From Candidatus Microgenomates bacterium (GTDB lineage Bacteria; Patescibacteriota; Microgenomatia; UBA1400; UBA12108), in contig QEVC01000001.1 in the NCBI GenBank assembly GCA_003576945.1, positions 26,129 through 90,128 on the forward strand: DNA of 64,000 bases, read 5' to 3'. The notes beneath the pieces were generated by a model that ran no database searches, was not told where the DNA came from, and saw only the letters and a list, made by a program, of their open reading frames with translations. The translations under genes and the position numbers were made by a program. Shown here piece after piece: positions 202 through 56,284 of the stretch; positions within the stretch are counted from its first letter, which is position 1, and every line of letters begins with the position of its first letter.

Positions 202-1053
202 TCACGACGTATGAGTTTGCGTGCTTGGAGGGGCGGGTTCGGCGGGTGGTGTGGGTAATTGCTCCTCGGGTCTCCCAGACTGCTTTGCGTCTGGAGACAT
301 TTCTCGGGAGCTCTCGCTCTCGAAGTGCAGTGGCTTAGGAGTTAATCTGGTCATTAATTTGTCTCCCCAGTCTTGGGCTAGGCGAAACGAATTGTAAAGC
401 GCGGAGAAGGCGAGTGAGGTGATGACGAAGAGTTTTTTACCTGAAGGGAGGAACATAAAAATAAGATAGCTGCCGACTGGTAAGACTACCTGCATTAAGA
501 TCTTATCTTTGCGTGAAATGGGGAGGGGTGAGCGCATGGCGATTAAAACCTCGACGACAAAAATCATGATGGACTGGACTAAGTTGAGGTAGGCGTTGGT
601 ATGACTAAGGTCATATTTGCCTAAAAACATTAGGTTAACTGTGTCTGGGTGAGGCATAAAGTCGTAGAGAAGGTGAAAGTCCTTACCTTCTAAGCCGGTT
701 GCAAAAATGCGGTAAAGCATGAAAATAATCGCGAGTTGAATCAGGATGTTGGTAGTGGTGGCTAAGACAGTTCGGATATTACTACGCATGACCAACCTAA
801 TCGCCTCTTTTTGCTTGATTGGCTCGTGGGCATATAATTTTTTGGCTTCCTCAATTTTCTCGATAATTTTTTGCTTTTCTTCTTCACTCCGCTCCCCTGC
901 AATAGTTAGGGGGAAGGTAAGGATACGGACAATGATCGAAAAGATGATAACGGCAATACCCATATCAGCTATGTCGGGTGAGATGGCACCAAGAAGCGAG
1001 TAGAGGCCAACAAGAATATTAAAAAAAGGAGTATAGATATATGTTTCGAACAT
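202..1053 (-). CDS. YidC/Oxa1-family membrane protein insertase (paralogue 1, long hydrophilic Pro-rich C-tail)
   Basis: 283 aa and multi-TM. The N-terminus, FNILVGLYSLLG...GIAVIIFSIIVRILTFPLT, matches the YidC core helix-1 pattern and parallels the second YidC at 23281-24018. Confidence 0.55.
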   Translation of the reverse strand: MFETYIYTPFFNILVGLYSLLGAISPDIADMGIAVIIFSIIVRILTFPLTIAGERSEEEKQKIIEKIEEAKKLYAHEPIKQKEAIRLVMRSNIRTVLATTTNILIQLAIIFMLYRIFATGLEGKDFHLLYDFMPHPDTVNLMFLGKYDLSHTNAYLNLVQSIMIFVVEVLIAMRSPLPISRKDKILMQVVLPVGSYLIFMFLPSGKKLFVITSLAFSALYNSFRLAQDWGDKLMTRLTPKPLHFESESSREMSPDAKQSGRPEEQLPTPPAEPAPPSTQTHTS

Positions 1054-13208: not shown

Positions 13209-14376
13209 TCTCAACTTAAGGATTGCGGCACCTTTAGCATTTGCTAGTATGCTGTTTTTCCCTAGCGCGATCTGGATGTTCTTTTATATACAATATTTAA
13301 GCTTTGCCGAGATCGCGGCGATCATGGCGATGGGAGCAATATTCTCGATAATACTAGAAGTTCCGACTGGTGTCTTTGCTGATGTGGTGGGGCGAAAATG
13401 GGCTGTTTTTGCCTCTTATGTTCTATTTGCAATTGCAATGGTGGGAGTGGCAACTTCTACGTCATATTTGTGGTTTTTAATCTGGACTCTGGTTAATGGA
13501 ATGGTGAACGCCCTATACTCTGGTAGTATGGAAGCGCTCGTTTATGACACACTAAAAGAAATTGAAAAAGAGGATGAGTTTGATCACTGGGTAAGTCGAA
13601 TGGAGGCGGCGACATGGGTAGGGCTTTTTATCAGCACCGTTATAGGAGGATATTTGTATACATTAGACCCGAGATTGCCCTACTTTGCTCAAGCTGTATT
13701 TATGGTGATGGCGGCACTCCTCTCATTACTACTTAAAGAGCCTAGGTTTGACTCATATCAATACAGTCTAGTAGATGGGATTAAACAAAACCTGGTGGGG
13801 TTTGGCGAGCTACTGGCAAATGAAAAAAGACGTTATTTAACTATTATCTTTGTCACTATTGGGGTTGGGTACTATATTGCCTCGGATATCCTGGGGATCT
13901 CGCAGGCAAGAGAGTATGGCCTAAAACCAGAAATAGTGGGATGGGTGTTTGGAGCCGGCTACATCATCTCGGCTATTGCCTCGCATTACTATCCCGCGCT
14001 AAGAAAAATAATTGGAGAGATGAGGCTAATTTGGTTAGCGACTGGGATCCTTATTATTAGTTTTGTAATGGCAAAATATGTCGGAGTGTGGATCGGGACC
14101 TTGCTCATAATTATGCGCATTGCCTCCGCGACTACTTTTCGCAATAGTCGGAGCGTCATAATAAATAGGGAAATATCATCTAAGAATAGAGCCACCACCC
14201 TCTCGACCCTCAACCTTCTTGTAATGTTGCCATATGCGCTCTTTGCCAATTTGATTGGGCGCTATATGGATCAAACAAGCCCCAACCAGTTTGCGTGGAT
14301 GTTGGGAATGGGACTAATGGGTGCGCTGGGACTGATCTATGTTGTGCGGGCTGCGTCGATGAGGCTGCGGATATAG
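13189..14376 (+). CDS. MFS transporter (tandem paralogue)
   Basis: 395 aa, with EVPTGVFADVVGRKWAVF. Overlaps the upstream MFS gene by 20 nt. Confidence 0.65.
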   Translation: MPKIRTNLNLRIAAPLAFASMLFFPSAIWMFFYIQYLSFAEIAAIMAMGAIFSIILEVPTGVFADVVGRKWAVFASYVLFAIAMVGVATSTSYLWFLIWTLVNGMVNALYSGSMEALVYDTLKEIEKEDEFDHWVSRMEAATWVGLFISTVIGGYLYTLDPRLPYFAQAVFMVMAALLSLLLKEPRFDSYQYSLVDGIKQNLVGFGELLANEKRRYLTIIFVTIGVGYYIASDILGISQAREYGLKPEIVGWVFGAGYIISAIASHYYPALRKIIGEMRLIWLATGILIISFVMAKYVGVWIGTLLIIMRIASATTFRNSRSVIINREISSKNRATTLSTLNLLVMLPYALFANLIGRYMDQTSPNQFAWMLGMGLMGALGLIYVVRAASMRLRI

Positions 14377-14445
14377 TTGCTTGCTCCACCCCCTGATTGT
14401 TCACCTTTTTGTTTGACGAGCTGTTCTGACAAATTTATGATAAGG

Positions 14446-15336
14446 CTATCCCAACATTATTGCGCCAACTGAGATAAGTAATATTGCAATCCACTGAGAC
14501 TTGGTGGTTTTTGATCTATCCCCTATTGGAAACATTAACAGTAACATCATTACAAAAAGACTCTGTACCCCGTTCATTGCTGACACGTATGCGCCTACCG
14601 GGGCCAGAGCAACGGCAATATTTCCTAGCCAAAAACTACCTTCTGCAAATGCTTCATTAAATAGGCTTAATCCAAGAAACTTCTTTCCCTGATGTTTAAT
14701 ACGATATAAGAATCCTTCTCTATATTTGGTTGCAAATATTAAGATTAGTATGCCGATAAATCCTATCGCGAGTAGTTGGTAAAAGGAAAAGGCTGTAGCA
14801 GAACCATACCTGGCAGCAACTCTCGCCATATATAGTGGAATTGCCGCAGTTGATGTCACGGGTATGCCAATTAGTAGTAATTTAGTAGGAACCTTCCATT
14901 TAAATGTTCCTGCGTCCAATATATATGCACCATACATGAGTAAAATGATGGCAATTAAACCGGTACTACTTATGGTTCCGCCATCTAATAATTCAAATAA
15001 GATTAACCAGACAGAGCTAATTTGGAAAATGGGACCGACTTGATGAACTGGATAAAGCTGTAGGAGGTAGAAATATGATCCATACATTATGACCATTGGA
15101 ACTGCGGATGTAATTGCAAGCATTAGTGGAAATTGTGTTAGGTGGATATCTGCAGTAGTAAAACCAATTAACGCAGCACCCACAAAACTCATTAGAGTTG
15201 ATATTAACAACACGCTTCCAACTTTGGTGTGAATATTCCCTCCTGGCGGTAGTTTATTTGAGGTGGCTAAGTGCTCGTCGGTATACAAAACCAGGGCCAT
15301 TAAAAAGATTGATATTAGTGTATATAAAAACCACAT
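14446..15336 (-). CDS. Polytopic membrane protein, function unknown
   Basis: 296 aa with about 9-10 hydrophobic helices. Confidence 0.4.
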   Translation of the reverse strand: MWFLYTLISIFLMALVLYTDEHLATSNKLPPGGNIHTKVGSVLLISTLMSFVGAALIGFTTADIHLTQFPLMLAITSAVPMVIMYGSYFYLLQLYPVHQVGPIFQISSVWLILFELLDGGTISSTGLIAIILLMYGAYILDAGTFKWKVPTKLLLIGIPVTSTAAIPLYMARVAARYGSATAFSFYQLLAIGFIGILILIFATKYREGFLYRIKHQGKKFLGLSLFNEAFAEGSFWLGNIAVALAPVGAYVSAMNGVQSLFVMMLLLMFPIGDRSKTTKSQWIAILLISVGAIMLG

Positions 15337-15350
15337 GGGGGAATTATATC

Positions 15351-15641
15351 CTAATTAACCTTGTTTATTTGATATGAAAGATAAATGGCTGAGGGGAGCA
15401 CGAGTAAGACCTCTACGACGGCAGAGAGTCCGAAGGTGGTAGCCACACTCCCCTGCTCCATAAGATAACCAATAAATGGGCCGAGCGCGACAACGGTGGT
15501 TAAGGAGTATGGAAGCTGTGGGTGAAGTGTATATAGATAACCCCCCAAGACACTATTAATTGCCATACCGATGGTACACCAAAAGAAGGTGTCGGCTTCG
15601 ACTTTTTGATACTCCTCCTCGCTACGGCCATTTCCTTTCAT
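15351..15641 (-). pseudogene. Remnant of a third MFS transporter paralogue (middle segment only)
   Basis: EEEYQKVEADTFFWCTIGMAINSVLGGYLYTLHPQLPYSL aligns with DEFDHWVSRMEAATWVGLFISTVIGGYLYTLDPRLPYF in the MFS at 13189-14376. It is only 96 aa and lacks the N-terminal half. Confidence 0.45.
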
Positions 15642-15788
15642 AGAGTCAGACAGAAGAGCTGAGAGGGCGCCGGAGAGTAGTTCGAGTAGTAGCTGGACAA
15701 AAAGACTGAGGTTATGAGAAAGGTGTGCGTGTTCTTTTTCCAGTTAGTTTTGGTTATTTGTTAATTATATCCCTGATATACTCGACTA

Positions 15789-16268
15789 ATGAAAGAGGGT
15801 CGTGGTTTTTGGCATAGTTTAGAAAATTACACGTGGAAAATAATTGAGAGACTCTCCCCTGCTCTGCCGTGGCTAGGATTGGGGATTATTGTATTAGTTA
15901 TTGCTACGTCGGCATATGGTACTAGAGCGAGCTTGGTGGGCACACAAGGGCTCAGAGAGGCTGCTCTGCGCGCAGCCAAGGTAGGAGATTATGTAATAGC
16001 ACAGGATTTGTGGGAAAGGATGACGATAAAGGAGGGGGATTCTGTTTTAGGAGTAGAAAGTGAACTTGAGGATAGGATTTATCCAGAACGAGTGGTAGAG
16101 CGCGAGATCGAAAAATATGAAGGGTTGTTGGCTAAATATCCAGGTCATAGAGATATATACCTAATGCTTGCTGGTCTATATGGCCAAATTGGCAAGACAG
16201 AGCAGTCAGAACAATACCTTGAGTTAGCAAGAGAACTAGACCCCAACAATAGTTTCTTTGGCGAGTAA
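15789..16268 (+). CDS. TPR-like repeat protein with an N-terminal TM
   Basis: C-terminal TPR-like helices (YLMLAGLYGQIGKTEQSEQYLELARELDPNN). Confidence 0.4.
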   Translation: MKEGRGFWHSLENYTWKIIERLSPALPWLGLGIIVLVIATSAYGTRASLVGTQGLREAALRAAKVGDYVIAQDLWERMTIKEGDSVLGVESELEDRIYPERVVEREIEKYEGLLAKYPGHRDIYLMLAGLYGQIGKTEQSEQYLELARELDPNNSFFGE

Positions 16269-16269
16269 A

Positions 16270-16926
16270 TTACTCTTTGGATTCTTCAGCTTTTGATGTA
16301 GTACCTGCCTCAGCAGGAGCGGCTGCAGCCTCGCCTTCCGCAGGAGCGGCAGGGGCTACTTCCTCTTCTTTGGCAGGTTCTTGGATGGTTGCGATTACTT
16401 CTTCATCCTCAACCATGAGAGTAACCTTGGAGCGATCGAGTTTGAGATCTTTGGCATGAATGGTACTACCTACTTCGGTTAAGGTTGTAATGTCGACTTC
16501 GATTTCGTTGGGTAGATCGGCAGGTAGTGCCTCTACTTCGATTTCATTGCGTTGGAGAACTAGGACGTTCCCGGCTTTGACTGCCTCGGATTCGCCGGTA
16601 GCCTTAAGAGGTACCATGGCAGTAGTCTTGACGTTTAGATCAACTTCGTGGAAGTCGACGTGGAGTAAGGAACCATCAATTGGGTCTTGAGAGTGGCCAG
16701 CGACCAAAACGGGGTGGGTCTTCTCCCCCTCAACAACAACGTCAATTAAGTTGGTTTCACCAGCTTTTTTGAGAACGTCTTTGAGAGATTTGGCCTCGAC
16801 TTGAATGGCGAGAGATTTAATTTTTTTTCCAAAAATATTGGCGGGTACAACGCCGGTTTTGCGGAGCGCGCGAACTTTTCGACCTAGTGCGGTTCTTTTA
16901 CTTGCTTTGACTGAGTAGTTAGACAT
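16270..16926 (-). CDS. rplY: 50S ribosomal protein L25 / general stress protein Ctc, with an acidic Ala/Glu-rich tail
   Basis: N-terminus KASKRTALGRKVRALRKTGVVPANIFGK, then the L25 beta-barrel. Confidence 0.8.
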   Translation of the reverse strand: MSNYSVKASKRTALGRKVRALRKTGVVPANIFGKKIKSLAIQVEAKSLKDVLKKAGETNLIDVVVEGEKTHPVLVAGHSQDPIDGSLLHVDFHEVDLNVKTTAMVPLKATGESEAVKAGNVLVLQRNEIEVEALPADLPNEIEVDITTLTEVGSTIHAKDLKLDRSKVTLMVEDEEVIATIQEPAKEEEVAPAAPAEGEAAAAPAEAGTTSKAEESKE

Positions 16927-23280: not shown

Positions 23281-24018
23281 TTATGATTTATTAAACATTT
23301 TACTAATTTTGGCCCAGTAAAGAGCGAGGCCGCCAGGACCAGAGACAATTAATTGTTGAACGAGGGAAAAGGCGGTCGTGATAACCCAGTAGAGGGCTAA
23401 CCCAGAGGGGAATTGGAGTGAGAAAATTATAGTCATAATGGGCATCATAAAAACCATTTGCTGCTGCATAGTCTGGGCCATCTCGGCAACATCTTCTTTT
23501 TGTTCTTTGGTGCCATCTCTTTTGCTTGGCTCGTTCTCGATTGCAGGAAGGAGGGCAACCGAAGTAATTAACTGAAGAACACCGGCAAGTACGGGCAGGA
23601 CATAGGTTGAGTCTTTGACCTTGAGATCCCACCAGAGGAAAAGTGAGTTTATCTCGCCCATTCCATTGCCACCAAGTGTATTCATAAATACTTGATAGAG
23701 GGCGATTAGTACAACAAACTGGGCAATGAAAGGGAGACAGCCGGCAGCGGGATTAATTTTATTTTTTTGATAAAGCTCAAGTGTTTTTTGTTGGAGAAGT
23801 TTGCTGTCGCTACCATGCTTTCGCTTTAGCGCGTCTAGCTCTGGCTTGAGAGCTGCCATTTTTTTGGCTGATTTCATTTGCGGAAGAGTAAAGGGGATTA
23901 AAATTGAGCGAACAAGTAGGGTTAAGACAATGATGGCAAAACCAAGATTGTCGCCCATGACTGAATACAACCACGTAAGGGTATTTAAGATGGGTTGATA
24001 AATCAGTGTTTGATACAT
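23281..24018 (-). CDS. yidC: YidC/Oxa1 membrane protein insertase (paralogue 2, in the canonical rnpA-yidD-yidC-jag context)
   Basis: GFAIIVLTLLVRSILIPFTLPQMKS...NPAAGCLPFIAQFVVLIALYQV are conserved YidC helix motifs. Confidence 0.75.
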   Translation of the reverse strand: MYQTLIYQPILNTLTWLYSVMGDNLGFAIIVLTLLVRSILIPFTLPQMKSAKKMAALKPELDALKRKHGSDSKLLQQKTLELYQKNKINPAAGCLPFIAQFVVLIALYQVFMNTLGGNGMGEINSLFLWWDLKVKDSTYVLPVLAGVLQLITSVALLPAIENEPSKRDGTKEQKEDVAEMAQTMQQQMVFMMPIMTIIFSLQFPSGLALYWVITTAFSLVQQLIVSGPGGLALYWAKISKMFNKS

Positions 24019-24633: not shown

Positions 24634-24642
24634 TAATTATGA

Positions 24643-24777
24643 TTATACAGTTAGGCTCTTACGACCAGCGGCGCGGCGACGAGAGAGGACGAGCCTCCCC
24701 TTGTGGGTGGCCATACGAGCACGGAAGCCGTGAACCCTGACGCGTTTTTTCTTTTTAGGTTGATAGGTTCTTTTCAT
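24643..24777 (-). CDS. rpmH: 50S ribosomal protein L34
   Basis: Not in the ORF track because it is under 60 aa. Translation is [44 protein letters not shown]. Confidence 0.85.
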
Positions 24778-24856
24778 GATTTCGCTATTATAACGAACGA
24801 GAGGGGATTTGTCACGGAGGGATACACTTTTGGTATATTTTAAATTGTGGAAAAAA

Positions 24857-24865
24857 TGTGGATAA
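24857..24865. promoter_or_regulatory. Perfect DnaA box (TGTGGATAA) in the rpmH/dnaA intergenic region
   Basis: Seen directly. It lies upstream of the dnaA start at 24920. Confidence 0.55.
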
Positions 24866-24919
24866 TAATAGTTATTCTGCCTGATTATATAGAGTGAGCG
24901 TTGAAAGTTTGTAAGACAT

Positions 24920-26266
24920 ATGGATGCTACGACAGTGTGGAAAGCAGTCTTAACAGATCTAGAGCTGTCCCTATCTAAGACTTATTTTGCTGGATATATC
25001 AAGCCACTCTCGCTAATATCGCTTACGGAGACTGAGGGGGGAGTGGTGGCAACCATAATGTGCCCGACCAGGTATCACGTACAAATGATGGAAGAAAAGT
25101 ATGGGAAACATGTAATTAGAGCAATTGAACGCGTGGTGGGGCAAAACTGCACCATTGAATACGAAATTGGAAAAGAGACTAGCTTGGAGATGGGTGGGGG
25201 ACTACCACTATTTCAATCCATACCTAAGCCAGCAACTATTTTGGGGAGTGGGTCACACAACCTAAACCCGCGCCTAACTTTTGATACCTATATCGTTGGC
25301 TCATCCAACAACTTTGCATATGCGGCGGCGCAGGGTGTAGCTAAAAGTCCGGGGACAAGGTATAACCCACTCTTTATCTATGGAGGAGTAGGACTCGGTA
25401 AGACTCACCTGATGCACGCGATTGGCCACGCGGTTTATACGGACCATCCAGACTGGGACATTATGTATATCTCGGCTGAGACTTTTGGGAGCGACTTAAT
25501 CGCGAGCCTGCAAAACAAGAGAACGGCGGCTTTTAAGAAAAAATATCGGGCACCTAACCTATTATTAATCGATGATATCCAATTCATTGCGGGCAAGGAA
25601 TATATTCAGGAAGAGTTTTTTCACACGTTTAATGAACTTTATATGTCTCAGAGACAAATCATCCTTACCTCAGACAGGCCCCCGCAGGAAATTTCTAGAC
25701 TAGAGGAGAGACTATCCTCTCGCTTTATGGGAGGGCTCATGGTAGATGTGCAGGCGCCGGACTTTGAGACAAGAATGGCAATACTGACCCAGAAATGTAT
25801 GGCTTTAGGTCTCGAAGTCTCACCTGACCTAATTTCGCTACTGGCAGAAAAGGCCGTGGGAAATATCCGAGAATTAGAGGGAACACTACAGGCAATCTTA
25901 GCTAAAGCACATTCTGAAAAGAGGCCGATTGACCCCGACTTAATCAGGGAACACTTTGGGGCAGCCTCAGAGCGGCGAAACCATAGGGTAAGACCCCAGG
26001 CAGTGATTAACAAAACGGCGCAGTATTTTAGCTATAAGGTTGCCGAATTAACGGGGAGTAGCCGCAAAGCCCCGCTCACGGCAGCGAGGCATACAGCGAT
26101 GTACCTACTATACGAAGAGCTGTCGCTGCCTTATGTACAAATAGGAGAGTTGTTTGGAGGGAGAGACCACACGACGGTGATTCATGCTGTTGAAAAAATT
26201 AAGGAAGAGTTAAAAAGCAACCCGCGGCTCTCGAAAACTCTTGCAGATATTCGACATGAGCTTTAA
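24920..26266 (+). CDS. dnaA: Chromosomal replication initiator DnaA
   Basis: Walker [20 protein letters not shown]+ sensor motifs, and C-terminal DNA-binding domain [18 protein letters not shown]. Confidence 0.9.
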
Positions 26267-26508
26267 GTTATCCACATTCTTTGTGGATAAGTATGAGGAA
26301 AAGTGCGGGAAAAAATGAGGAAAACTTGAGTAAAAATGAGGATAAGTATGTTATCAACAATTAAATGGAGTTTATCCCCAAGCTTTTCCGGGTTGTTTTC
26401 CACCGCTTCCGCCAGACTTCTATCCACATATCCACAGACCCTAACAACACTATAACTATGTATTAAGCATTTAGTATTTGGTAGTATGTATAAGAAAAGA
26501 GAGGTGTT
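26267..26508. promoter_or_regulatory. Probable oriC: DnaA-box cluster plus three AAAATGAGGAWAA 13-mer-like repeats (candidate unwinding element)
   Basis: TTATCCACA at 26268-26276, TGTGGATAA at 26282-26290, CTATCCACA at about 26420-26428, ATATCCACA at 26429-26437, TTATCCCCA at 26372-26380. Repeats aatgagga(a/t)aa at about 26294, 26314 and 26335, in an AT-rich stretch. Confidence 0.6.
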
Positions 26509-27609
26509 ATGAAAATAGAAATTCTCCAAGAAGAATTGCTTAAAGGGCTTTTAGTTGTGTCGCGTGCAGTTTCAAGCAGGACACAGTTGCCAGTTTTGTC
26601 GGCGGTAAAAATTGAGGCACTGGCAACAGAACTTGTTCTATCAGCGACAGATTTAGAAATTGGGGTAAGGCACATTGTGTCTGCGAAAGTAGATGCACGG
26701 GGAGTGGTTGCGGTACCAGCAAAAACCTTTAGCGAACTACTAACCACACTCGCACCTGGAAAGTTGTCGATTGAGCTAAAAGAGCAAAATCTGATTATTA
26801 AATCTAAAGGCTTCACCGGCAAAATTGCGACAGTAGATGCTTCAGAGTTTCCAACCCTCCCCGAAATGAAAGAATCGCTAATTGGAGTGTCGGCATCTGA
26901 GCTTATGAAAGGGGTTTCAAACGTTGGTTTCGCGAGCGCGAAGGAGTCACTACGCCCTGTGCTTACCGGAGTGCTAATGGAGGTCTCAGAGAGCTTGCGG
27001 GTGGTTGCAACTGATGGGTTTCGACTAGCGGTTTCCACAATTGGAATTAAGGGTGCCACCATCAAGGCGCAGTCTTTGCTAGTCCCTGCACGAGCACTAT
27101 TTGAATGCGGAAAGATTCTTAGAGAGGGAGTTATTAAGATCGGATATCTTCCTGAATCGAAGCAAGTTTTATTTGTGGGAGAGCAAACACAGCTTAGTTC
27201 ACAGATAATTGAAGGAAATTTCCCTGATTACAACAAAATATTACCAAAAGAGTTTGTGACTAGAATGGTTGTCCCAAGAGAAGAGCTGCTTTCAGCGGTT
27301 AAGACAGCACTTGTTTTTGCCAGAGACAACTCAAACATGATGCGCTGGCGGGTGGAGGGTGGAAGACTTATGATTTCATCTAGTTCGAGTGGAAGTGGGG
27401 AAGGATTAGTTGAGGTTATGGTAAAAGCTGAAGGGGAAGAGCCCTTGGAAGTGGTATTTAACGCAAAGTATGTTATCGATTATTTAACTCTTCTGGACAA
27501 TGAGTCGGTGTGGGTTGGGCTTGGCGGAAAGCTGGCTCCAGGAATGATCGCGGAGAGCGAAAATGGCAGGGATAATGCTTTCTACGTGGTAATGCCGATT
27601 AACGCCTAG
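26509..27609 (+). CDS. dnaN: DNA polymerase III beta sliding clamp
   Basis: 366 aa with three-domain clamp architecture. N-terminus MKIEILQEELLKGL... Confidence 0.9.
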   Translation: MKIEILQEELLKGLLVVSRAVSSRTQLPVLSAVKIEALATELVLSATDLEIGVRHIVSAKVDARGVVAVPAKTFSELLTTLAPGKLSIELKEQNLIIKSKGFTGKIATVDASEFPTLPEMKESLIGVSASELMKGVSNVGFASAKESLRPVLTGVLMEVSESLRVVATDGFRLAVSTIGIKGATIKAQSLLVPARALFECGKILREGVIKIGYLPESKQVLFVGEQTQLSSQIIEGNFPDYNKILPKEFVTRMVVPREELLSAVKTALVFARDNSNMMRWRVEGGRLMISSSSSGSGEGLVEVMVKAEGEEPLEVVFNAKYVIDYLTLLDNESVWVGLGGKLAPGMIAESENGRDNAFYVVMPINA

Positions 27610-29540
27610 GAGTTTTGAGTTGTTTTAGGCGATTGACTGATAGGCTCGGTTTTAGTGGGAGGTGCGGCTTGTGCTGGTTGTGCTGGCACAGTGTTTATTT
27701 TTTGAGAAAGGGCCGCCTGAGCTTGTTTAAACTGTTGGGCCTCTGCCTCTTCTTTTTTGCGGAGAGCCTCCCTAGGATCAGTGGTAATTAGAGCATGCTC
27801 CTCGGGGGAGGCCACGACGCGCATGGCAACGTGATTTTGGCCGGCGAAAAAGAGTGATTCACCGACTTCGGCAGTGAGGAGTAGATGTCGTTCTCCTTGG
27901 GAGAGATAGAAAACATTGGCTAGTTTTTCGATGGCACTGGTGCTTTGTTTCATTAAAACCTGAATGCTGGCGTTACTAACGATAGCCTTGCCATGATCAT
28001 CTTTTAAGAAATCTTCAACGTCTTGGGTGATGGTAGTGAGGCCTAAGAAATATTTACGTGCACGTTTGGCGATACCATAGAGAAAGGTGGCGGAGTCTTC
28101 GTTTTTCATAAGATACCAGGCCTCATCAACCACCAAGAGGCGTCGCTTGAGGTCTCTTTTTACTTTGGTCCAGATATAGTCAAGAATAATAAAAATGGCA
28201 GTGGGTCTGAGTTCATCCTGAAGGTTTTTGATGCCAAAAACGGTTAGTTGTTTGCCAAAATCGACATTGCTCTTTTGAGAGAAAATCCCTTGGAAACTAC
28301 CCTTAACATACTTCTCGAGGCGGTCGGCGAGACCGCGAGCCACGGCCTCTTCCATACCAACTAGCGCTTTGTAGAGATCTTCCATGAGGGGTGGCTCGTT
28401 CTTGTGCGTTGTTGGGTCTCGATTGATGCCCTTCATCTGATATGTCATAACGAGCGCTCGATCCAAAAGCGCTTCTTCTTGGGCGGTGACGTCGCCCAGC
28501 ATGATTTTGAGGAGGGAGTGAAGGGAGATGATTTTCATGGCGAGTTCGTTTTCGTCGGGTTCGGCGAGCTGGGGAAGCTCGAAGGGGTTAATACGGTTGG
28601 GGGAGGTAAAACTAAAGTCGATGTAGGTGCCGTTAACGGTCTGGGCCATTTTGCGATATTCGTCTTCGGGATCGATAATAATAACCTCGGTTTCGAAGAG
28701 GAGAGAGCGAAGAATTTCTAGTTTGACCATATAACTTTTACCGGAGCCCGACTTGGCAAAAACTACCATGTTAGCGTTCTCCAGACTAAAGCGATCAAAG
28801 ACAACGAGACTATCATTATGTTCGTTGATGCCATACATAATACCTTCGTTGGCGGTTAGCTCACTACTAGTAAAGGGGAAGGTAGTGGCGAGGCTAGTAG
28901 TGTCCATGTTGCGATTGATTTTTAAGAAATCTTTACCCATGGGGAGAGTGGTTTTAAAACCGTCTTCGATTTGAAGGGTAGCGGTTTTGGCGACGATTAG
29001 GAGAGCACCCAAGGTGGATTTGATGTGGTTGGTGACTTTGTCGAGCACGTCTCTTTTGTCATCACGAATGGTTATATAGAGACCAAACTGAAAAAAACGT
29101 TCGGCGCCTTTGGCAAGCTGCTCTTGTAGACTCCGAGCATCCTCTAGTTTGACCTGGGTATCAATATTAATAATCTTGCCACGCTGAATATCTCCCTGGA
29201 GCTCAGCTTCCATTTCGGCGATTTTGCGCCGCAAGTCCTCGATGACCCCCTTGCCGTCGACGGGATAAATAAACATTGAAATACTAAGAGAGTGGGGAAA
29301 ATTGATTAAGGGTGAGAGCCAGTTGGCGTTAACAAAGCGGGGGTAGCCGGCGACGAATAGAGTGCGGTAGTACGTGTCGTTGATTTTGACGTCAGACCAG
29401 TCGACCTCGATCGCCTCAGGAGCAATAATGTCTTTTACATTGGTGGTACCAGTTGCAAGGATTTGAATGGGGGGAGAGACCGCGGGACCCTGCTCTTCGG
29501 TTTTTTTGTTTTTGCCAGCAAAAGGAAAGGGCAAGTTCAT
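27606..29540 (-). CDS. VirB4/TraC-family T4SS ATPase (Gram-positive PrgJ/ConE-like) with a Pro/Gln-rich C-tail
   Basis: Walker A VVFAKSGSGKSYMV, a Walker B region, and N-terminal IAPEAIEVDWSDVKINDTYYRTLFVAGYPRFVNANWL typical of the VirB4 N-domain. Stop codons overlap dnaN convergently. Confidence 0.7.
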   Translation of the reverse strand: MNLPFPFAGKNKKTEEQGPAVSPPIQILATGTTNVKDIIAPEAIEVDWSDVKINDTYYRTLFVAGYPRFVNANWLSPLINFPHSLSISMFIYPVDGKGVIEDLRRKIAEMEAELQGDIQRGKIINIDTQVKLEDARSLQEQLAKGAERFFQFGLYITIRDDKRDVLDKVTNHIKSTLGALLIVAKTATLQIEDGFKTTLPMGKDFLKINRNMDTTSLATTFPFTSSELTANEGIMYGINEHNDSLVVFDRFSLENANMVVFAKSGSGKSYMVKLEILRSLLFETEVIIIDPEDEYRKMAQTVNGTYIDFSFTSPNRINPFELPQLAEPDENELAMKIISLHSLLKIMLGDVTAQEEALLDRALVMTYQMKGINRDPTTHKNEPPLMEDLYKALVGMEEAVARGLADRLEKYVKGSFQGIFSQKSNVDFGKQLTVFGIKNLQDELRPTAIFIILDYIWTKVKRDLKRRLLVVDEAWYLMKNEDSATFLYGIAKRARKYFLGLTTITQDVEDFLKDDHGKAIVSNASIQVLMKQSTSAIEKLANVFYLSQGERHLLLTAEVGESLFFAGQNHVAMRVVASPEEHALITTDPREALRKKEEAEAQQFKQAQAALSQKINTVPAQPAQAAPPTKTEPISQSPKTTQNS

Positions 29541-31580: not shown

Positions 31581-32189
31581 TTAGTTGGAGAAGGTGTAGG
31601 TGTGGCTGTCGGGGTCGAGACCATTTTCTTTGACCCAGTCGCGGACGGCGTTTATTATTTCACCGCGTTCTTCTACTCCAACTTTGAGGGTAATTTCGAG
31701 GTGCTTTGGACTTTTGTAGAGAATGGTAAAGCCAGGCGCCTCATATGGGATTTTGTTGGCCAAAGGATAATCACGCTTGATCTCGTCGACTACTTCTTGA
31801 TTGGCGCGGGGCTCGCTCTGTTGAGGAATAGTGGTAAAAGTGAGAGTTTTGAGGGGTTGATTGTTGTAGAAAATATTAAGCGTATATTCAGTATTTACGA
31901 ACAGGTATTTTTTTGACTGGAGCTTAACAATGTTGTTGGGAGCAGAGGTAATGTCCCAAGATTCTTCGGGGATAGAGGTAACTGACAAGAGATTGGGGTC
32001 GACGGCGGTAGCAAATTTAAGCTGAATAGGCTCGAGATAACTGACTTTGGTGGCGTAATCAGAAGGGATGGTGGCGAGAAGGGTGGGGAGGGGCGTGGGT
32101 GGAGTGATAAAGAACGAGAAGATTAATAAGCCGAGAGAGATAATAGCGAGAGCAATGAGAAAGGGTTTTTTGGTTAAGAAATGGAACAT
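31581..32189 (-). CDS. N-terminally anchored extracytoplasmic protein (possible VirB8-like role)
   Basis: 202 aa with a TM at residues about 9-30. Functional assignment is inference. Confidence 0.35.
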   Translation of the reverse strand: MFHFLTKKPFLIALAIISLGLLIFSFFITPPTPLPTLLATIPSDYATKVSYLEPIQLKFATAVDPNLLSVTSIPEESWDITSAPNNIVKLQSKKYLFVNTEYTLNIFYNNQPLKTLTFTTIPQQSEPRANQEVVDEIKRDYPLANKIPYEAPGFTILYKSPKHLEITLKVGVEERGEIINAVRDWVKENGLDPDSHTYTFSN

Positions 32190-32198: not shown

Positions 32199-35087
32199 TT
32201 AGATTTTTTTAAGACAACCAGCAACCCGACTACTAAGCCAGGTACAACCATCGGGTCCGCGGACAACCCCGTTACCACCACCATTAGCGTCGGCACAGCG
32301 GATAGTGGCGCCGCCATTGTCAATAAACACGCCGACGTGGCCATAACCACCAGTAGTCGTATCGACAAAGAAATCTCCTGGACTACAACTACCGATGCCG
32401 AGGACGGGCTTGTAGCCGGTGGGTGGGCTCGCAAGCAGAGTTTTGGCGTCGCCAAAACCAGAACCAGCACCACCATTGGCGACGTCGATCGCGCGGACAA
32501 AACCTACACATTGGAGGTAGGTGTAATTGGTGGCCGACTCTTTTAAGACAGCAATAGCGCTTTGAGCGAGAGTGCTGGCGAGGACGCACTGCCAACTATT
32601 GCCGTTTGCGTTGCTGGAGGTGAGAGGGTTAATGCCACACTTGCTTAGTATCTCAACGATACAGGCGGCAGTCTGGATGCGTGAGTTATTTTTGCCCCCA
32701 CCTTCGCCACTATCACAGAGGAGACTACCTATAAATTGACCTGCGCCGGAGTCGAGACTGAGGTTGACGTCGAGACGAGTAGTAACATCTAGATCAGAAA
32801 GGTTAGTAATATTTACAAAACTCATTACCCCAATAATTATGAGAGCGAGCATAAGCGACCCTAGAGTCAATGTAAAAACTCCACCGAGAAATATTCCCAG
32901 GCCCGTAAATATGCCAGCAAACAATCTCCCAATATTAAGGGTTGCAAGGAAGGCAGATATTGCGAGTCCCCAACCCACAACAGTTTCTCGAAACCTGCCA
33001 TCTTTAAAGAATTTTTTGAGAAAACTCCAACCCGCAGAGATTAAGTCCAGGGCAAGACTACCCACAAAGAGTACTGTGCCGATAATAGTACCAGATGAGG
33101 CGATGGCACCAATCAGCTTAGCCCCAGTTTTGGCTAAAGCCTTACCCCCAATTTTGATTAAAAAGCGGGTAGTGGCGCGGCCTGCTTGGATCCCTACGTA
33201 TTTACCAACATCTGATAGTCCGACCTTAGCAAGACTCCACTTAATGGCTTTACCCCACTGCCTACTGGCAAAAGCCGTAGTGGCTCCACCAACTGTGTGT
33301 CCGCCTAGCTCAAAATATTTGAGACCCCAGTTGATGACTGGTCTGGCAGGCTCTAGGACAACTTTCCACCCTTTATACTTGCCTGCTCCTTCTGCTAGCC
33401 ACCTAGTCGTGGTGACTTTTTTCCATTCGTCTAAGCGATCTTGGATCCAGGGGGCAATGCGAAAGAGGGGGATTTTGGTACCAGGAATTGTGACGTGTTC
33501 GGCGATTTCGTCCCATTTATCAAAAGCTCTGTGGAGAAGTTTTTTGCCTGTGATGGTTTCTTCAAAATCGATCCAGGAGTCAAGAATTTTGGTTTGAGCT
33601 TCATAAAGGCGAGATCTAGCATCAAGTACGCGGCGACCCCAGTGTGCACGGGAGATTTCGCGACGTTCAATGGGAGTTAGGCTAGTATAATAACTAAGGT
33701 CAGCATTAAGATGTCGGGCATTAATAATAAAATCAACATCGATGTTTTTGCCAGGCTTATTACTTTCTGCCTGGTAGGCATCGTAGAGGTTGTCAAATTT
33801 TGTATTATTTTTTGTGTTGTAGGCGAGGAGGAGCTGATCCTTTTTGGTACTAAGCCTCGCTTCGGTTTTGAGATATTGATGTTCATCGCGGAGAAAGAGA
33901 GTGGGATTAATACCTTTTTGAACTAGACTCCATTCGCGGCGCGTAAGACGATAGTTGTTAAGAGTTTCGACTTTTTGATTTTGGATGTACTCGAGTGAGA
34001 CGTCAAACCCTTGATTTTTGATACTGCTGCCTAGGTCGGTGAGAATAGAGGGTGAAATACTTAACTGCTGGCCAGTAAGAGTCATTAATTCATCAAAACT
34101 GCGTTTTTCGGTAGCACTACTAGTGGTAGTTTTGAGGAGAGTGGTAACAAGACGCGTTCGATCCGTTTCATTTAGGTTAGGGAGCGCGGAGGAGAGGCGA
34201 GACTTTAGCTCTGTTTCGTTTAAGAGCTGAGAGGAGAGCGAGCGAGCCGCCTCGAGGCGACGCGTTTCGTAGGTTTCGACAAACTCATTACCACCAAACT
34301 CTTTGACTATATTGTTAACAAGTTCTCTGGTTTGACGACTAGTCTTTTCTTCTTTGACGTAGGTGAGGAGGTCGGAACTTTCGGGGTAGGACTGTTTAAT
34401 GAGATCAGTTAGTTTGGAAGCTACAGCAAAATCTTTAACTTGATCACTCCCACCAGTACTCCCGGCGGCATGGAGGTCGCTTAAGTTGGCGGTTATGATG
34501 CGGGCAAACTGGGCGCGGAGGGCGGCTTCGCTAATACTGGTTCTACCTGGGGGGAGAATATCTCTAATTAATTTTTGGGGAACGACACCAGTATTTGCAT
34601 ATTTGAGGGCCTCAAAATACATTTTTGTATAGAGGTCGTACTGCTTGCCGGGGTCGTAGGAGGATGTTTTGACGATCGCCACGTCGAGTTTTTTGGCACG
34701 GAGAGCAGCGATGTTTTCGATACGCGCGGCAGTTAAGAGTTTGTTGGGATCTTGGACTTCTTTGGCAAAAATGAGAGAGGCACTACGAGCAAACTCTTCT
34801 TCACTCTTAATTCTACCCAGCTTTTCTTGATCCTCTTTGTTAATGCCCTTGACGTAGATTAAGTAGTCGAGGACGAGCTGTTTTGCTTCGGTAATGCTAA
34901 TGTATTCGGGTTCTTGCCCATTATCGACTGGGAGAGATACACCGCGGCTACCACCGACTATTTCTGCCTGGGAGGAGAGCTGCTCTAGGAGCCATTCTTG
35001 GATGAATTGGCGATTGGCGCCTTCTGACAACCCTCGGTTGTTTTTATAAAAAGTGGATTGTTGGTAGGTGATGAGTCGACGAGCCAT
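32199..35087 (-). CDS. Large membrane-spanning protein with a C-terminal CHAP-domain peptidoglycan hydrolase (VirB1/PrgK-like role)
   Basis: 962 aa: an about 650-aa N-domain without a signal peptide, 3-4 TM helices (about 660-760), and C-terminal YLQCVGFVRAI...GDFFVD...GYGHVGVFID, the Cys/His CHAP catalytic pattern. Confidence 0.6.
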   Translation of the reverse strand: MARRLITYQQSTFYKNNRGLSEGANRQFIQEWLLEQLSSQAEIVGGSRGVSLPVDNGQEPEYISITEAKQLVLDYLIYVKGINKEDQEKLGRIKSEEEFARSASLIFAKEVQDPNKLLTAARIENIAALRAKKLDVAIVKTSSYDPGKQYDLYTKMYFEALKYANTGVVPQKLIRDILPPGRTSISEAALRAQFARIITANLSDLHAAGSTGGSDQVKDFAVASKLTDLIKQSYPESSDLLTYVKEEKTSRQTRELVNNIVKEFGGNEFVETYETRRLEAARSLSSQLLNETELKSRLSSALPNLNETDRTRLVTTLLKTTTSSATEKRSFDELMTLTGQQLSISPSILTDLGSSIKNQGFDVSLEYIQNQKVETLNNYRLTRREWSLVQKGINPTLFLRDEHQYLKTEARLSTKKDQLLLAYNTKNNTKFDNLYDAYQAESNKPGKNIDVDFIINARHLNADLSYYTSLTPIERREISRAHWGRRVLDARSRLYEAQTKILDSWIDFEETITGKKLLHRAFDKWDEIAEHVTIPGTKIPLFRIAPWIQDRLDEWKKVTTTRWLAEGAGKYKGWKVVLEPARPVINWGLKYFELGGHTVGGATTAFASRQWGKAIKWSLAKVGLSDVGKYVGIQAGRATTRFLIKIGGKALAKTGAKLIGAIASSGTIIGTVLFVGSLALDLISAGWSFLKKFFKDGRFRETVVGWGLAISAFLATLNIGRLFAGIFTGLGIFLGGVFTLTLGSLMLALIIIGVMSFVNITNLSDLDVTTRLDVNLSLDSGAGQFIGSLLCDSGEGGGKNNSRIQTAACIVEILSKCGINPLTSSNANGNSWQCVLASTLAQSAIAVLKESATNYTYLQCVGFVRAIDVANGGAGSGFGDAKTLLASPPTGYKPVLGIGSCSPGDFFVDTTTGGYGHVGVFIDNGGATIRCADANGGGNGVVRGPDGCTWLSSRVAGCLKKI

Positions 35088-35135
35088 AGGCTAATTGTAA
35101 CATTGCATCTGGTGTGGTGTGGTAGAATTGGAAGA

Positions 35136-38100
35136 ATGAACAGTGGTGAGCAAGAAAGCAACAAGAAGAATAAAAAAGAGGCGGAAAAAAAGAGCCCGAA
35201 TGCCGTTGAAAGCAAGGTTTCGATCGAGGAATTGTTGTTGGTAGTATTTGCGAGAAGAAGTGTAGAACAGTTAAAGGTAACTCTTGAGAGTGGCCAAAAA
35301 ATTAGTGACGAGGCGATGAAGATGATTGTTAAAAGGGTGTCGGGAGAGATTGATAACCAGGAGCAGAAGGATTTGCTTGGATTAATTGTTAAGCAGGTTG
35401 AGGGTAAAAAAGATGAGAGAGATATGGCTCGAGACAACCTTGCAAAACTACTGCAATTGCAGGATGAGAACTTGGTGGGCAAGAAAAAAACTAGCAAAAA
35501 GAAAAATGCCAAAAGTGAAAAACCTAGTAAAGGACAAGAGACTGACGCCGAAAAACTGATTTCTTTTGTAACTAAGGACAAGAAAGACATTAATCGTGAA
35601 GGTATAAGCACAATTTGGGCTGATACCGCAAAGGAACTTGGGAGGTTAAAAGAGAAGAGTGGGGGTGATCAAATTCGTGCAATTGAGAGCGCTATACACT
35701 CTTCGATGGTGAATACCAAGAATTCAATCGAAAAAGGACTAAATGAGCCAATGTCAAAAGAGAACAAGGAAGATATCCTTAAAGAAACTAAAAATCTTTA
35801 TGACAAATACGCAGAGAAAAATCAGCGCAGAAATATTGCTAAGTTGGGGTGGAGAGAGAGACAAGATTTAAAACGTGACAATATTGTCATCGGTCGAGGA
35901 ATGAAGATAGTTAATGATTTTGTCGAAATTGCTGGAGACGAAAAGAAGGTTAAAGATCTATTCAAAAAAAAGACACAAAAAGATTATCTGGAGCTATTCG
36001 CATTTATGGATCTAATGGAAGAAAAAGCTGACACGGAAAATTTTGCGGAACTATATGAAGTTTCAAGGCGGATACAGGAATCTTGGGATCAGAATATCGT
36101 AGAGGAAACTAGGGAAAGTTCTAGGAAACTTACAGATGAAGATAGACAGGAAGTTAAGAAGCGCGTGAAGAAGCAGGAAATACCAGAGCTTGAACGAGTA
36201 GAAGACATGGTGAACTGGTTAATCGACAACAACGTTTTAAATGACGAGATGGCTAGTAGGATGAGTGAGGAGCAGATCCTAGACTTTTATCGGAACCTAA
36301 AAGATACTTTAGAGATGCGGGCTAGCGGATACTCGATTGGTGGCGGCGCTGAGCGATATCGCAATGTCGATTATGCAAAATATTTGCCAGAGCTTAATGA
36401 GGCAATAAAAAAGAAATGGCGCGAAGCAGGTCTTGATGTTGGTAAGTTGGGAGAGGCAATTCCCGACATAGAGGCAATATTGAACGGGTCGAAAGATGCG
36501 TTTGTAAATACGAATTTACCACTAGAGGCTAAAAAAATACTTGAGGATGTAATATTTCAGGAACTTTTACAGGGGGCCAGGGTTTTGGTTAGTGAGTCAG
36601 TTGATCGAAACATGATGTATTACGATAATCGGGCGACGAAATACCTCACCCTCTTAGCTTTGAGAGGACTAGATACTACCCTAAAAGATACGGTCACTAA
36701 CCACATGATATTACAGCAGTTATCTTTTGCGTGGCGCAATGGCTACGTGGATGAAGAATTGTATGGGAAAGTAATGGATTTTTGGTCGAGACAAGGACCA
36801 GAGTACCGTTTATTTGAAGAGATGAAGCGGAATGAAACGGTATTGATTAAAGACAAAGAAGGTAAAGAGGTCTTAGTTTCGCTAGAGTTAAACATGCACG
36901 ATTTTGAGGGGACAATGGCTCAGAATGTGGCAGATGAGGATAAAGAAGCGGTGGGAATGCCATTAGATATAGATAGATCCTGGGGAACTGTCGCCGCGCG
37001 GAAAACAGAAAAAGAATCAATGAAGTCTGATCGAAGAGTCCTTACTCGACGAGCCCTGATTAATAAATATGGAATAGACGAATATAATCGGTTGGCAAAG
37101 AAAGCTGGTGGAGAGGAAAACCTAGTAGGTCAAATCGTTGACAACTACGGAGATTATATAAACAGGGTATATCTTTACTGGATTGGTACAGGACGACTTG
37201 GCGAGATAGTGGGTAACGCATCGTTTGATAACAACAAGTTTGATTTACCACAAGGCATTCCAGAGTATTATATGAAACGTGATCCAAGATTGTTAGTTTG
37301 GTTTTTGTGGAAGTACACACCAGTACGAGTGCCAGAGGCGCTTTTTGGTTTAGCTCGGATGGGACTTCCCTCGTTCCATGCCGCAAACAAGGGCGAGAGT
37401 GCAGCACATTTTATAGGTACTAGAGACACAACAGAGGGCGGAGCTGGGTCACGTCGAGCGTTTTACGACAACAATAGCGATAAGTTTACCAGCGTCCAAC
37501 TAGATAAGTTTTCGGAGAAGTTTGCAAAAGTATTTAAAAAAGCATTGTATAACGATGACGAGTTTACATATAGTGAGAAGAATCCCTATTTTAAAGCGAT
37601 TTCTCACTTGCAATCGGATAAGTATAACCCCCGACGAAACAATACTGAGACTATAGATATACTATTGGGCTTTGAGGCTACTGAAAAAGATGATAACTTC
37701 TTTGAGGCAATATCTTGGGAATGGGCTAAATTACATTATTCCCACGACAAACAGCTTGTTAATTTCTTAAATTCCAAAGCTAGTGGTCGCGATAAATTTA
37801 AGTTTTTTGCTAAACGATTTAATGACGGATTCTTCTTAACGACTGCGCTTAAGGCTAAGCGGGGAGATGATGCCAAGAAATATAGATTCAACTATCAGGG
37901 CGAGGACATGAAAGCGGTTATTGAATACGCCAATAACCCCGAGCCTGAGAACTTAATGAAGATATTGTCAATTGTGGCGAGTATTGTAGGGGACGAAATT
38001 GGTGAGGCGCGTGACGCTAATCTAGAGATAGCGTATGAAATACTTAAGGAGCGGGAGGTTGGAGAGGCATTAGATGTTATTAAATATAATGGGGGGTCGG

Positions 38101-38588
38101 TGGCATTTAGTAATAAAGATTATGTCGGGGCAAATAAGGGCGAGTTCCCATTACCAGAAATGACGAAAGTTCCACATAACCCGCTTGACAAAGACATTCC
38201 CACTCATAGTACGGCGGCATATCGTGGACTAGAGCATAAAGTGTATGAGGGGGAAATGTTAATGAAGGTATTAATGCGCAATGCGAGGGCGGCTAATCTA
38301 TATAGAGACGACCATGAATATCGAGAAAAGCGAAAAGAAGCAAAATTGGAATACTTTAAGGAATCTTTACCACGACTTCATTGGGATAACAAGATTGCGT
38401 GGTACTGGAATGTTCTGAATAACGGAAAGCATTTATGGGATGTAGTGACCTTTAAGAAACTTACAAACTATATCGCGATAGAGATATTCCAATTACCACC
38501 CCACTTATTCTGGGAGTGGCTTTTTGAAAATAGTGAAAAATCATGGGAAACTACCATGAAAGTTTTTGCAGGACACGGTGGTCACTAA
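35136..38588 (+). CDS. Giant hydrophilic protein of unknown function (about 1150 aa, Lys/Glu-rich N-terminus)
   Basis: Uninterrupted ORF. The start is moved to ATG 35136 (MNSGEQESNKK). No TM, Walker or nuclease motifs recognised. Divergently transcribed from the CHAP-protein operon. Confidence 0.45.
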   Translation: MNSGEQESNKKNKKEAEKKSPNAVESKVSIEELLLVVFARRSVEQLKVTLESGQKISDEAMKMIVKRVSGEIDNQEQKDLLGLIVKQVEGKKDERDMARDNLAKLLQLQDENLVGKKKTSKKKNAKSEKPSKGQETDAEKLISFVTKDKKDINREGISTIWADTAKELGRLKEKSGGDQIRAIESAIHSSMVNTKNSIEKGLNEPMSKENKEDILKETKNLYDKYAEKNQRRNIAKLGWRERQDLKRDNIVIGRGMKIVNDFVEIAGDEKKVKDLFKKKTQKDYLELFAFMDLMEEKADTENFAELYEVSRRIQESWDQNIVEETRESSRKLTDEDRQEVKKRVKKQEIPELERVEDMVNWLIDNNVLNDEMASRMSEEQILDFYRNLKDTLEMRASGYSIGGGAERYRNVDYAKYLPELNEAIKKKWREAGLDVGKLGEAIPDIEAILNGSKDAFVNTNLPLEAKKILEDVIFQELLQGARVLVSESVDRNMMYYDNRATKYLTLLALRGLDTTLKDTVTNHMILQQLSFAWRNGYVDEELYGKVMDFWSRQGPEYRLFEEMKRNETVLIKDKEGKEVLVSLELNMHDFEGTMAQNVADEDKEAVGMPLDIDRSWGTVAARKTEKESMKSDRRVLTRRALINKYGIDEYNRLAKKAGGEENLVGQIVDNYGDYINRVYLYWIGTGRLGEIVGNASFDNNKFDLPQGIPEYYMKRDPRLLVWFLWKYTPVRVPEALFGLARMGLPSFHAANKGESAAHFIGTRDTTEGGAGSRRAFYDNNSDKFTSVQLDKFSEKFAKVFKKALYNDDEFTYSEKNPYFKAISHLQSDKYNPRRNNTETIDILLGFEATEKDDNFFEAISWEWAKLHYSHDKQLVNFLNSKASGRDKFKFFAKRFNDGFFLTTALKAKRGDDAKKYRFNYQGEDMKAVIEYANNPEPENLMKILSIVASIVGDEIGEARDANLEIAYEILKEREVGEALDVIKYNGGSVAFSNKDYVGANKGEFPLPEMTKVPHNPLDKDIPTHSTAAYRGLEHKVYEGEMLMKVLMRNARAANLYRDDHEYREKRKEAKLEYFKESLPRLHWDNKIAWYWNVLNNGKHLWDVVTFKKLTNYIAIEIFQLPPHLFWEWLFENSEKSWETTMKVFAGHGGH

Positions 38589-42433: not shown

Positions 42434-45312
<2,879 letters not shown>

Positions 45313-45316
<4 letters not shown>

Positions 45317-56267: not shown

Positions 56268-56284
56268 ACAAGAGTGTTATAAAA

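Follow-up and report, generated by a model that had tools for sequence, protein, structure and literature searches.

Where does replication of the chromosome begin in a bacterium whose DNA keeps one strand composition on both sides of dnaA? The question is raised by a 64-kb stretch of the genome of a Candidatus Microgenomates bacterium (the window), whose positions serve as coordinates throughout. In it the genes dnaA and dnaN are separated by a 242-bp spacer, in which a sequence-only reading had placed a replication origin. We conclude that the region is likely to be a genuine, conserved chromosomal origin (oriC) of the B. subtilis type in this member of the Patescibacteria/Microgenomatia, with its unwinding module predicted at 26420-26500. 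The sequence hallmarks of a dnaA-linked oriC are all present: DnaA boxes are clustered, the neighbourhood is rpmH-dnaA-dnaN, and relatives share the arrangement. As an origin it is ordinary; its replication context is unusual.

A probable origin between dnaA and dnaN

How pronounced is the clustering of boxes? Three perfect DnaA boxes occur in the 64 kb, all of them flanking dnaA (0.51 expected; one of 100 shuffles reaches three). Two form the convergent pair described in the earlier reading, TTATCCACA at 26268-26276 on the plus strand and TGTGGATAA at 26282-26290, and the third, again TGTGGATAA, is the box reported upstream of dnaA at 24857-24865. One-mismatch boxes near dnaA start at 24846, 26337, 26351, 26372, 26420 and 26428, the last three accounting for the near-perfect boxes already proposed at 26372-26380 and about 26420-26437. 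With up to one mismatch allowed, nine of the 23 boxes in the window lie within 24846-26436. Seven of them fall in the dnaA-dnaN spacer, where the density in the remainder of the window would predict 0.053 (Poisson P = 2e-13), and two in the 142-bp rpmH-dnaA spacer (P = 5e-4); no other 300-bp stretch of the window contains more than one such box, and there is no second cluster in the 64 kb.

The plan of the spacer is shared with relatives. A DnaA scan of species-representative genomes yielded 77 loci. The closest are Microgenomates-group metagenome-assembled genomes (L001-L008; DnaA 65-85% identical), which we call clade A; wherever nine clade-A genomes are counted, the window is included. Next comes a large Shapirobacteria-like clade, clade B (DnaA 41-46% identical to that of the window), and remoter loci belong to Saccharibacteria, Paceibacteria and Bacilli. 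A neighbour-joining tree of DnaA groups L009 with clade B and places clade A as their sister. The same architecture, in the same spacer and orientation, recurs in L001-L008 and in 14 Shapirobacteria-like genomes. In all, an oriC of the B. subtilis type is kept in eight close and more than 20 distant relatives. Throughout clade A the dnaA-proximal half of the spacer carries boxes in the TGTGGAnAA orientation and the distal half boxes in the TTATCCACA orientation, four to six in number; a 4-nt GC cluster comes after the final box, and CTA trios and an AT-rich run that reaches the ribosome-binding site of dnaN come next. At positions equivalent to the boxes of 26351-26404 the aligned relatives read GTTATCCACA or GTTnTCCAC. 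In the alignment, the window and L001-L003 have the head-to-head pair at 26268-26290, and L004-L008 lack it. The pair is also an inverted repeat, its two 9-bp arms perfectly matched around a 5-nt loop, and could double as an mRNA 3' hairpin. A block that hardly varies among the 14 clade-B spacers, TTTTCCCCCGAAACTTACCCAA ... CTTATAAGATAA (for instance at about 11410-11460 in L012; clade-B alignment columns 133-185), stands between the box triad near dnaA and the unwinding module, and a GGGAAAAAA block occupies a comparable position in clade A, in the opposite strand sense.

Where would the DNA open? The B. subtilis unwinding module reads 3'-AATAGGTGT/TTAGGTGT/CCGG/GATGATAATGAAGATGAT-5', or 5'-TTATCCACA/AATCCACA/GGCC/CTACTATTACTTCTACTA on the top strand, with trios CTACTATTACTT... 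(Pelliciari 2021, Tables S1/S2; PMC8287927). The boxes, 4-nt GC cluster, CTA-first trios and AT-rich element of the window agree with it in order, in orientation and in spacing (spacer 12; Table 1), the tandem 9-mer and 8-mer, CTATCCACA/TATCCACA, corresponding to TTATCCACA/AATCCACA (boxes 6 and 7) of B. subtilis. The one-mismatch boxes at 26420 and 26428 overlap by 1 nt. The GC cluster, GGCC in B. subtilis, is GGCT in L003-L005, L007 and L008, GCCC in L006 and GTCC in L002. The published rule for the basal unwinding system (BUS) calls for a box with at most two mismatches, optionally joined by a second box, no more than 16 bp from the trios, which the window supplies as CTATCCACA (one mismatch) with TATCCACA and GACC at a spacer of 12, and for a low-stability duplex beyond the trios. 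Such a duplex is found at 26450-26479, the least stable 30-mer of 24.6-26.65 kb, which is 80% AT and ranks, among all 30-mers of the window, between the 99th and 99.9th percentile. In the 14 clade-B genomes the same module occupies the same place and orientation (CCACTTATCCACC/CCnCC/TAnTACTACnACTACTA, then an AT-rich run, then dnaN). The boxes on this side of the spacer retain their pyrimidine-rich orientation despite the purine pressure on that strand, which implies selection.

The resemblance to the B. subtilis origin (incC) extends to the location between dnaA and dnaN, to a second box cluster upstream of dnaA and to the initiator itself. Residues 5-447 of the window protein align with B. 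subtilis DnaA 8BTG (E = 2e-95), the recognition motif (recognition helix) of domain IV is identical and the equivalent of Ile190, which binds single-stranded DNA, is conserved. The window differs from B. subtilis in that its trios are degenerate, while L003-L008 keep CTA CTA CTA, in that weak inverted boxes phased at 11 bp make up the dnaA-proximal half of its spacer, and in that no skew inversion accompanies the origin.

Some observations weigh against the assignment. GC skew, whether taken overall, at third codon positions (GC3) or at fourfold-degenerate sites (GC4), shows no sign change at 26 kb and is positive from 1 to 60.9 kb. The BUS rule also calls for at least three consecutive trios of the form 3'-NAN-5' (consensus GAT), (NAN)x3 being the minimum suggested by B. 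subtilis genetics (Richardson 2016/2019; Pelliciari 2021, PMC8287927); in the window only trios 1, 4 and 6 conform, and the closest relative, L001, has just two consecutive trios and likewise falls short of (NAN)x3. L003-L008 (CTA CTA CTA) and clade B do have the required run of trios at the corresponding place, and the window array aligns with CTA CTA CTA nnA CTA in L003-L008. The strict published rule matches 33% of control or random windows; a stricter form, a box followed by at least three canonical CTA or TTA trios, matches about 1% of control windows. With boxes of up to two mismatches the rule misses L004-L008, whose proximal boxes are weaker. Because the strict rule is too permissive and also misses these genomes, the assignment of the module rests on alignment.

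What, then, are the repeats at the other end of the spacer? The origin of E. coli combines a 13-mer DNA unwinding element (DUE) with R boxes and phased low-affinity I, tau and C sites. Three aatgagga(a/t)aa-type copies, described earlier as candidate DUE 13-mers in an AT-rich stretch, do exist here (ATGAGGAWAA at 26293, 26315 and 26336; once more in the window at 36934, with 0.43 expected), and the AT content of the stretch is elevated, but merely moderately, at 66%. The full 13-mer AAAATGAGGAWAA is exact only at 26312 and 26333, the first copy lacking the AAAA prefix. Their tandem arrangement at 21-22-bp spacing beside perfect boxes, in moderately AT-rich DNA, recalls the L, M and R 13-mers of E. 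coli, but a role as an unwinding element is very unlikely. With one mismatch, AAAATGAGGAWAA matches AAAATGTGGATAA, the perfect upstream box with its flank (24853-24865); the copies (TGaGGAtAA) are one or two mismatches from the box consensus and are part of a 22-nt unit in which two boxes stand about 11 bp from each other; in relatives they align with the canonical TGTGGAnAA-type boxes TGTGGAAAA, GTGGACAA and GTGGATAA; their zone is stabler than 26450-26500 (66% against 76-80% AT); and the conserved box-GC-trio-AT module stands at the opposite end of the spacer. The T-to-A change that yields TGAGGA runs along the purine pressure of that strand. On sequence grounds, the '13-mers' are degenerate, weak, phased DnaA boxes and not an unwinding element. 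The spacer as a whole still resembles the E. coli origin in having a strong anchor box followed by same-orientation weak sites about one helical turn apart, and two oppositely oriented box sets, one per origin half. It differs from it in the absence of AT-rich 13-mers and of GATC in the repeats, and in not being separated from dnaA.

The second, smaller group of boxes lies upstream of dnaA, where each of the nine clade-A genomes has TGTGGAAAA-nn-TGTGGATAA, neither box differing by more than one substitution. The perfect box at 24857-24865 overlaps the -10-like GATAAT of dnaA, which suggests autorepression; the upstream tandem boxes thus probably autoregulate dnaA. On the rpmH side, the GATTTGTCAC block of the promoter-like site is conserved in nine of nine clade-A spacers.

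If the elements, their statistics, geometry and conservation are taken as a guide, binding, unwinding and firing might proceed as follows. The high-affinity anchor boxes at 26268 and 26282 would nucleate DnaA. The weak phased array (26282-26345) and the opposite-orientation set (26351-26404) would raise the local DnaA concentration and favour oligomerization, and the tandem boxes at 26420-26436 would direct a filament of ATP-DnaA over the 4-nt GC cluster onto the trio strand (26441-26458). The AT-rich duplex next to it (26450-26500), immediately before dnaN, would thereby open and receive the helicase. The strand-wide purine/pyrimidine bias of the lineage disregards oriC, and the missing skew switch is no argument against this origin.

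Table 1. Features of the origin region, by window position
Feature	Position	Strand	Details
rpmH (ribosomal protein L34)	24640..24777	-	45 codons, divergent from dnaA; read from sequence
rpmH promoter-like site, GTGACA-17-TATAAT	24787..24815	-	11 of 12 matches
dnaA promoter-like site, TTTAAA-16-GATAAT	24839..24866	+	weak, 9 of 12 matches; -10 within perfect DnaA box
Upstream tandem boxes	24846..24865	-	TGTGGAAAA (one mismatch) and TGTGGATAA (perfect), 11 bp apart
dnaA	24920..26266	+	448 aa, full-length four-domain initiator; Pfam PF00308 (7e-67), PF08299
Head-to-head perfect pair	26268..26290		TTATCCACA-ttctt-TGTGGATAA; begins 2 nt past dnaA stop
Phased same-orientation box array	26282..26345	-	about 11-bp phase; starts (mismatches) 26282 TGTGGATAA (0), 26294 TGAGGAAAA (2), 26304 TGCGGGAAA (3), 26316 TGAGGAAAA (2), 26337 TGAGGATAA (1)
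Boxes in TTATCCACA orientation	26351..26404	+	TTATCAACA (26351), TTATCCCCA (26372), TTTTCCACC (26396)
Unwinding-module boxes	26420..26436	+	CTATCCACA and 8-mer TATCCACA; tandem, 8-bp offset
4-nt GC cluster	26437..26440	+	GACC; read from sequence
Degenerate DnaA-trio array	26441..26458	-	top CTA ACA ACA CTA TAA CTA; bound strand 3'-GAT TGT TGT GAT ATT GAT-5'
AT-rich candidate DNA unwinding element	26450..26500		overlaps dnaN leader and ribosome-binding site (GAGAGGTG)
dnaN (beta sliding clamp)	26509..27609	+	366 aa; beta-clamp domains PF00712, PF02767, PF02768; start conserved in relatives (alignment)
VirB4-like ATPase of a type IV secretion system	27606..29540	-	644 aa; PF19044 TraG P-loop (2e-28), AAA_10, DUF87; convergent with dnaN

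Strand bias and fork direction

Does the missing skew switch speak against an origin at this place? A skew minimum located elsewhere had been named beforehand as the finding that would do so, and formally the window gives that result, with no sign change at 26 kb. To the left and right of the origin alike, plus-strand GC skew per kb ranges from +0.07 to +0.36, and genes of either strand have positive GC3 skew over 1-60.9 kb. A switch at dnaA is equally missing from 32 related loci. Within 10 kb of dnaA the skew of clade-A loci is uniform at +0.16 to +0.27 on both sides, and that of clade-B loci is uniform with the opposite sign, -0.15 to -0.52; control loci from Saccharibacteria, Paceibacteria and Bacilli display the classical negative-to-positive switch. 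Because uniform skew is lineage-wide, the skew test is uninformative here and can neither locate nor exclude an origin.

Near-linear, monotonic cumulative GC skew over entire closed Microgenomates chromosomes was described by Kadnikov et al. 2020 (PMC7143001) for Ch65, Ca. Collierbacteria MFAS01000001 and Ca. Beckwithbacteria CP011210, and unidirectional replication or adjacent ori and ter were proposed. The term dnaA is absent from the main text of that paper, so the skew was not tied to an origin. As the skew of these closed chromosomes never switches, they contain no alternative skew-defined origin. The window shares with them a strong G/C strand disparity that is independent of gene orientation, a weak bulk AT disparity and a gene content weighted towards the C-rich strand, which carries 59% of the coding bases of the window and, in Ch65, 449 genes against 389. 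It differs in that a canonical oriC can here be placed inside the uniformly skewed DNA, and in that the bias is also present, with opposite polarity, in the Shapirobacteria-like clade. We found no report in the later literature on monotonic-skew lineages that maps oriC or describes a polarity flip.

What is the nature of the bias? Loci of opposite polarity were compared (window 1-60900 and L001-L008 against L010-L037, L057, L060, L061, L064 and L073). At fourfold-degenerate sites the dnaA-sense strand is G+A-rich in clade A (G 0.29-0.50, C 0.10-0.22, AT4 skew +0.17 to +0.24) and C+T-rich in clade B (C 0.28-0.33, G 0.06-0.10). Around an origin of the same orientation, in loci that are syntenic gene for gene, one pattern mirrors the other, and orthologous genes have a GC4 skew of about +0.6 in clade A and about -0.5 in clade B. 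When the bias is decomposed, the uniform term comes to about +0.45 for clade A and -0.6 for clade B, and the sense-strand term is similar in the two, at -0.12 to -0.2. L009, which is syntenic and branches with clade B, has no uniform term. Outside both Microgenomates clades on the DnaA tree, a locus labelled Saccharibacteria (L039, DnaA 37% identical) has a skew of -0.47 and -0.45 on either side of dnaA, and G makes up just 2.5-4.5% of the fourfold sites of its dnaA-sense strand.

How is a chromosome with such a bias copied? We tentatively prefer, as the most economical though unproven reading, that one fork from this oriC replicates essentially the whole chromosome. Uniform skew on both sides of the origin, a feature of unidirectional replicons, extends over 61 kb of the window and over 10 kb to either side of dnaA in the 32 loci. 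We regard as possible rather than probable the fuller proposition that a canonical DnaA/BUS origin is combined with unidirectional or extremely asymmetric chromosome replication whose direction, or the polarity of whose bias, was reversed between the syntenic sister clades A and B. Could the origin instead fire bidirectionally in the normal way, with a strand-wide G+A versus C+T bias of non-fork origin masking the switch? Among same-orientation orthologues, the step in fourfold-site skew from the left to the right of oriC is +0.10 for clade A and +0.17 for clade B, where it is seen at 24 of 24 loci, and its sign is the one expected for a classical origin over a uniform offset. The bias is moreover of purine/pyrimidine type and not the G+T/A+C signature of deamination in single-stranded DNA. 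The step is, however, not diagnostic of a hidden classical switch, because gene-specific deviations match it in size (in both clades yidC departs by +0.12 to +0.15) and a sense-strand codon effect would have the same sign; to our knowledge, no process except the direction of replication or transfer marks one strand of a whole circular chromosome. We consider masked bidirectional firing somewhat unlikely.

The uninterrupted skew would also be explained if forks merely passed through the region, the box clusters being purely regulatory (dnaA autorepression, dnaN control, titration of DnaA) and replication starting elsewhere or without DnaA. The absence of a switch at dnaA in the window and the 32 loci, the degenerate trios of the window and L001, the perfect box that overlaps the -10 of dnaA, and the location of oriC apart from dnaA in E. 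coli and some other bacteria all fit that account. We nevertheless hold it to be improbable: eleven box-like sites, BUS geometry and an adjoining AT-rich element far exceed regulatory needs, the module is shared between clades whose DnaA proteins are just about 42% identical, the 64 kb contain no further box cluster, and an origin 'elsewhere' would lack skew support too, as the published closed genomes never switch.

The preferred reading of a single fork can be compared with the chromids of Pseudoalteromonas, which replicate unidirectionally, as read depth has established, and carry dif 4-27 kb from ori (PMC7858055). As in the window, their GC skew is uniform across the replicon, origin flanks included; the chromids differ in using a plasmid-type RepA origin with a nearby dif, while the origin described here is of DnaA/BUS type. 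In a search of the window and 16 relatives, no 28-mer comes within seven mismatches of the dif sites of E. coli, B. subtilis, H. influenzae or actinobacteria, and the ATAA-N6-TTATG-type core pattern has no conserved site near dnaA, although a dif of the Candidate Phyla Radiation (CPR) may be too divergent for either search. Matches at position 9989 in L002 and L022 consist merely of a box and the dnaA start codon and were dismissed.

The patch of negative skew at 60.9-63.4 kb was considered as a terminus or alternative origin and rejected on account of its low GC content (38-42%), an IS200-type Y1 transposase gene (62704-63135, plus strand) and the absence of a box cluster. It further holds open reading frames without Pfam matches, such as 61270-62628 on the minus strand, and is probably a mobile island, of which just 3 kb are visible.

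Genes around the origin

The order yidC-yidD-rnpA-rpmH / dnaA-dnaN is kept in eight close and 12 distant relatives, with rnpA, yidD and yidC following rpmH on the same strand (Pfam). Beyond it, the order and orientation of g17002, g20505, g21679, g22826, yidC, yidD / dnaA, dnaN / VirB4, g29710 and PrgI are conserved across clades A and B. Because both clades share this order, the locus resembling a type IV secretion system beside dnaN, in which PrgI-family and CHAP-domain genes (Pfam) follow the VirB4-like gene, is ancestral and not a recent insertion. An 88-aa open reading frame that spans the dnaA-dnaN spacer (26263-26529, minus strand) was rejected as a gene, the spacer indels among relatives being non-triplet, and tRNA and Rfam scans revealed no structured RNA in the origin region.

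Is the junction between dnaN and the VirB4-like gene a special arrangement? As the sequence-only reading had it, the dnaN stop (TAG, 27607-27609) and the minus-strand stop of the VirB4-like gene (27606-27608) share CTAG at 27606-27609. The accompanying statement that no space is left for a terminator stands as far as the overlap goes, but 60 nt downstream of dnaN, within the 3' end of VirB4, there is a terminator-like hairpin (27669-27691), although terminator-like matches of this kind are not above chance. The adjacency of the two genes is kept in all eight close relatives. Gaps of 77-147 bp separate them in six of the eight, and the distance of -140 in L002 is probably an artefact of stop-walking. 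As only L007 shares the 4-bp overlap, we regard it as local compaction and not as a design feature.

The VirB4-like ATPase is far more conserved than the adjoining replication proteins, at 86-96% identity in clade A (DnaN 47-66%) and 58-62% in clade B, and its variation is confined to the C-terminal ~55 residues. The L008 orthologue (12836-16444, minus strand) is a single 1202-aa open reading frame that carries at its P-loop region an intein with a LAGLIDADG homing endonuclease (Intein_splicing 2e-15, LAGLIDADG_3 3e-16). Clade B has 2-6 kb of extra DNA between dnaN and VirB4 that clade A does not have (4-6 kb in most loci, for instance 12730-16940 in L012, and about 2.3 kb in L064); in L022 and L025 this insert starts with a homologue of the window gene at 31581-32189.

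Farther from the origin, a second, divergent gene of the YidC/60KD_IMP family (202-1053, minus strand; E = 3e-17) lies 22 kb from the canonical yidC (23281-24018). Four large open reading frames have no Pfam match: 35058-38588 (plus, 1176 aa), 38619-40127 (minus, 502 aa), 42434-45316 (minus, 960 aa) and 56237-58069 (plus, 610 aa), the first three being inside or adjoining the secretion-like gene block. The smpB gene (58217-58654, plus) is followed on the opposite strand by the tmRNA gene (58699-59112, minus; Rfam 88.5 bits), and a tRNA scan found no tRNA gene in the whole 64 kb.

Significance for the Microgenomatia

What does an ordinary origin in uniformly skewed DNA mean for these bacteria? 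The likely module beside dnaN extends the Bacillus-type box-trio unwinding system to the Microgenomatia, within the CPR, and corrects the predicted site of opening. Monotonic skew has been on record for a few closed Microgenomates genomes since 2020, and unidirectional replication was proposed with no origin mapped. New here are the placement of a conserved canonical oriC within uniformly skewed DNA and the mirror-image bias around the same origin in syntenic sister clades. In these lineages, origin finders and assembly checks that rely on skew will mislead.

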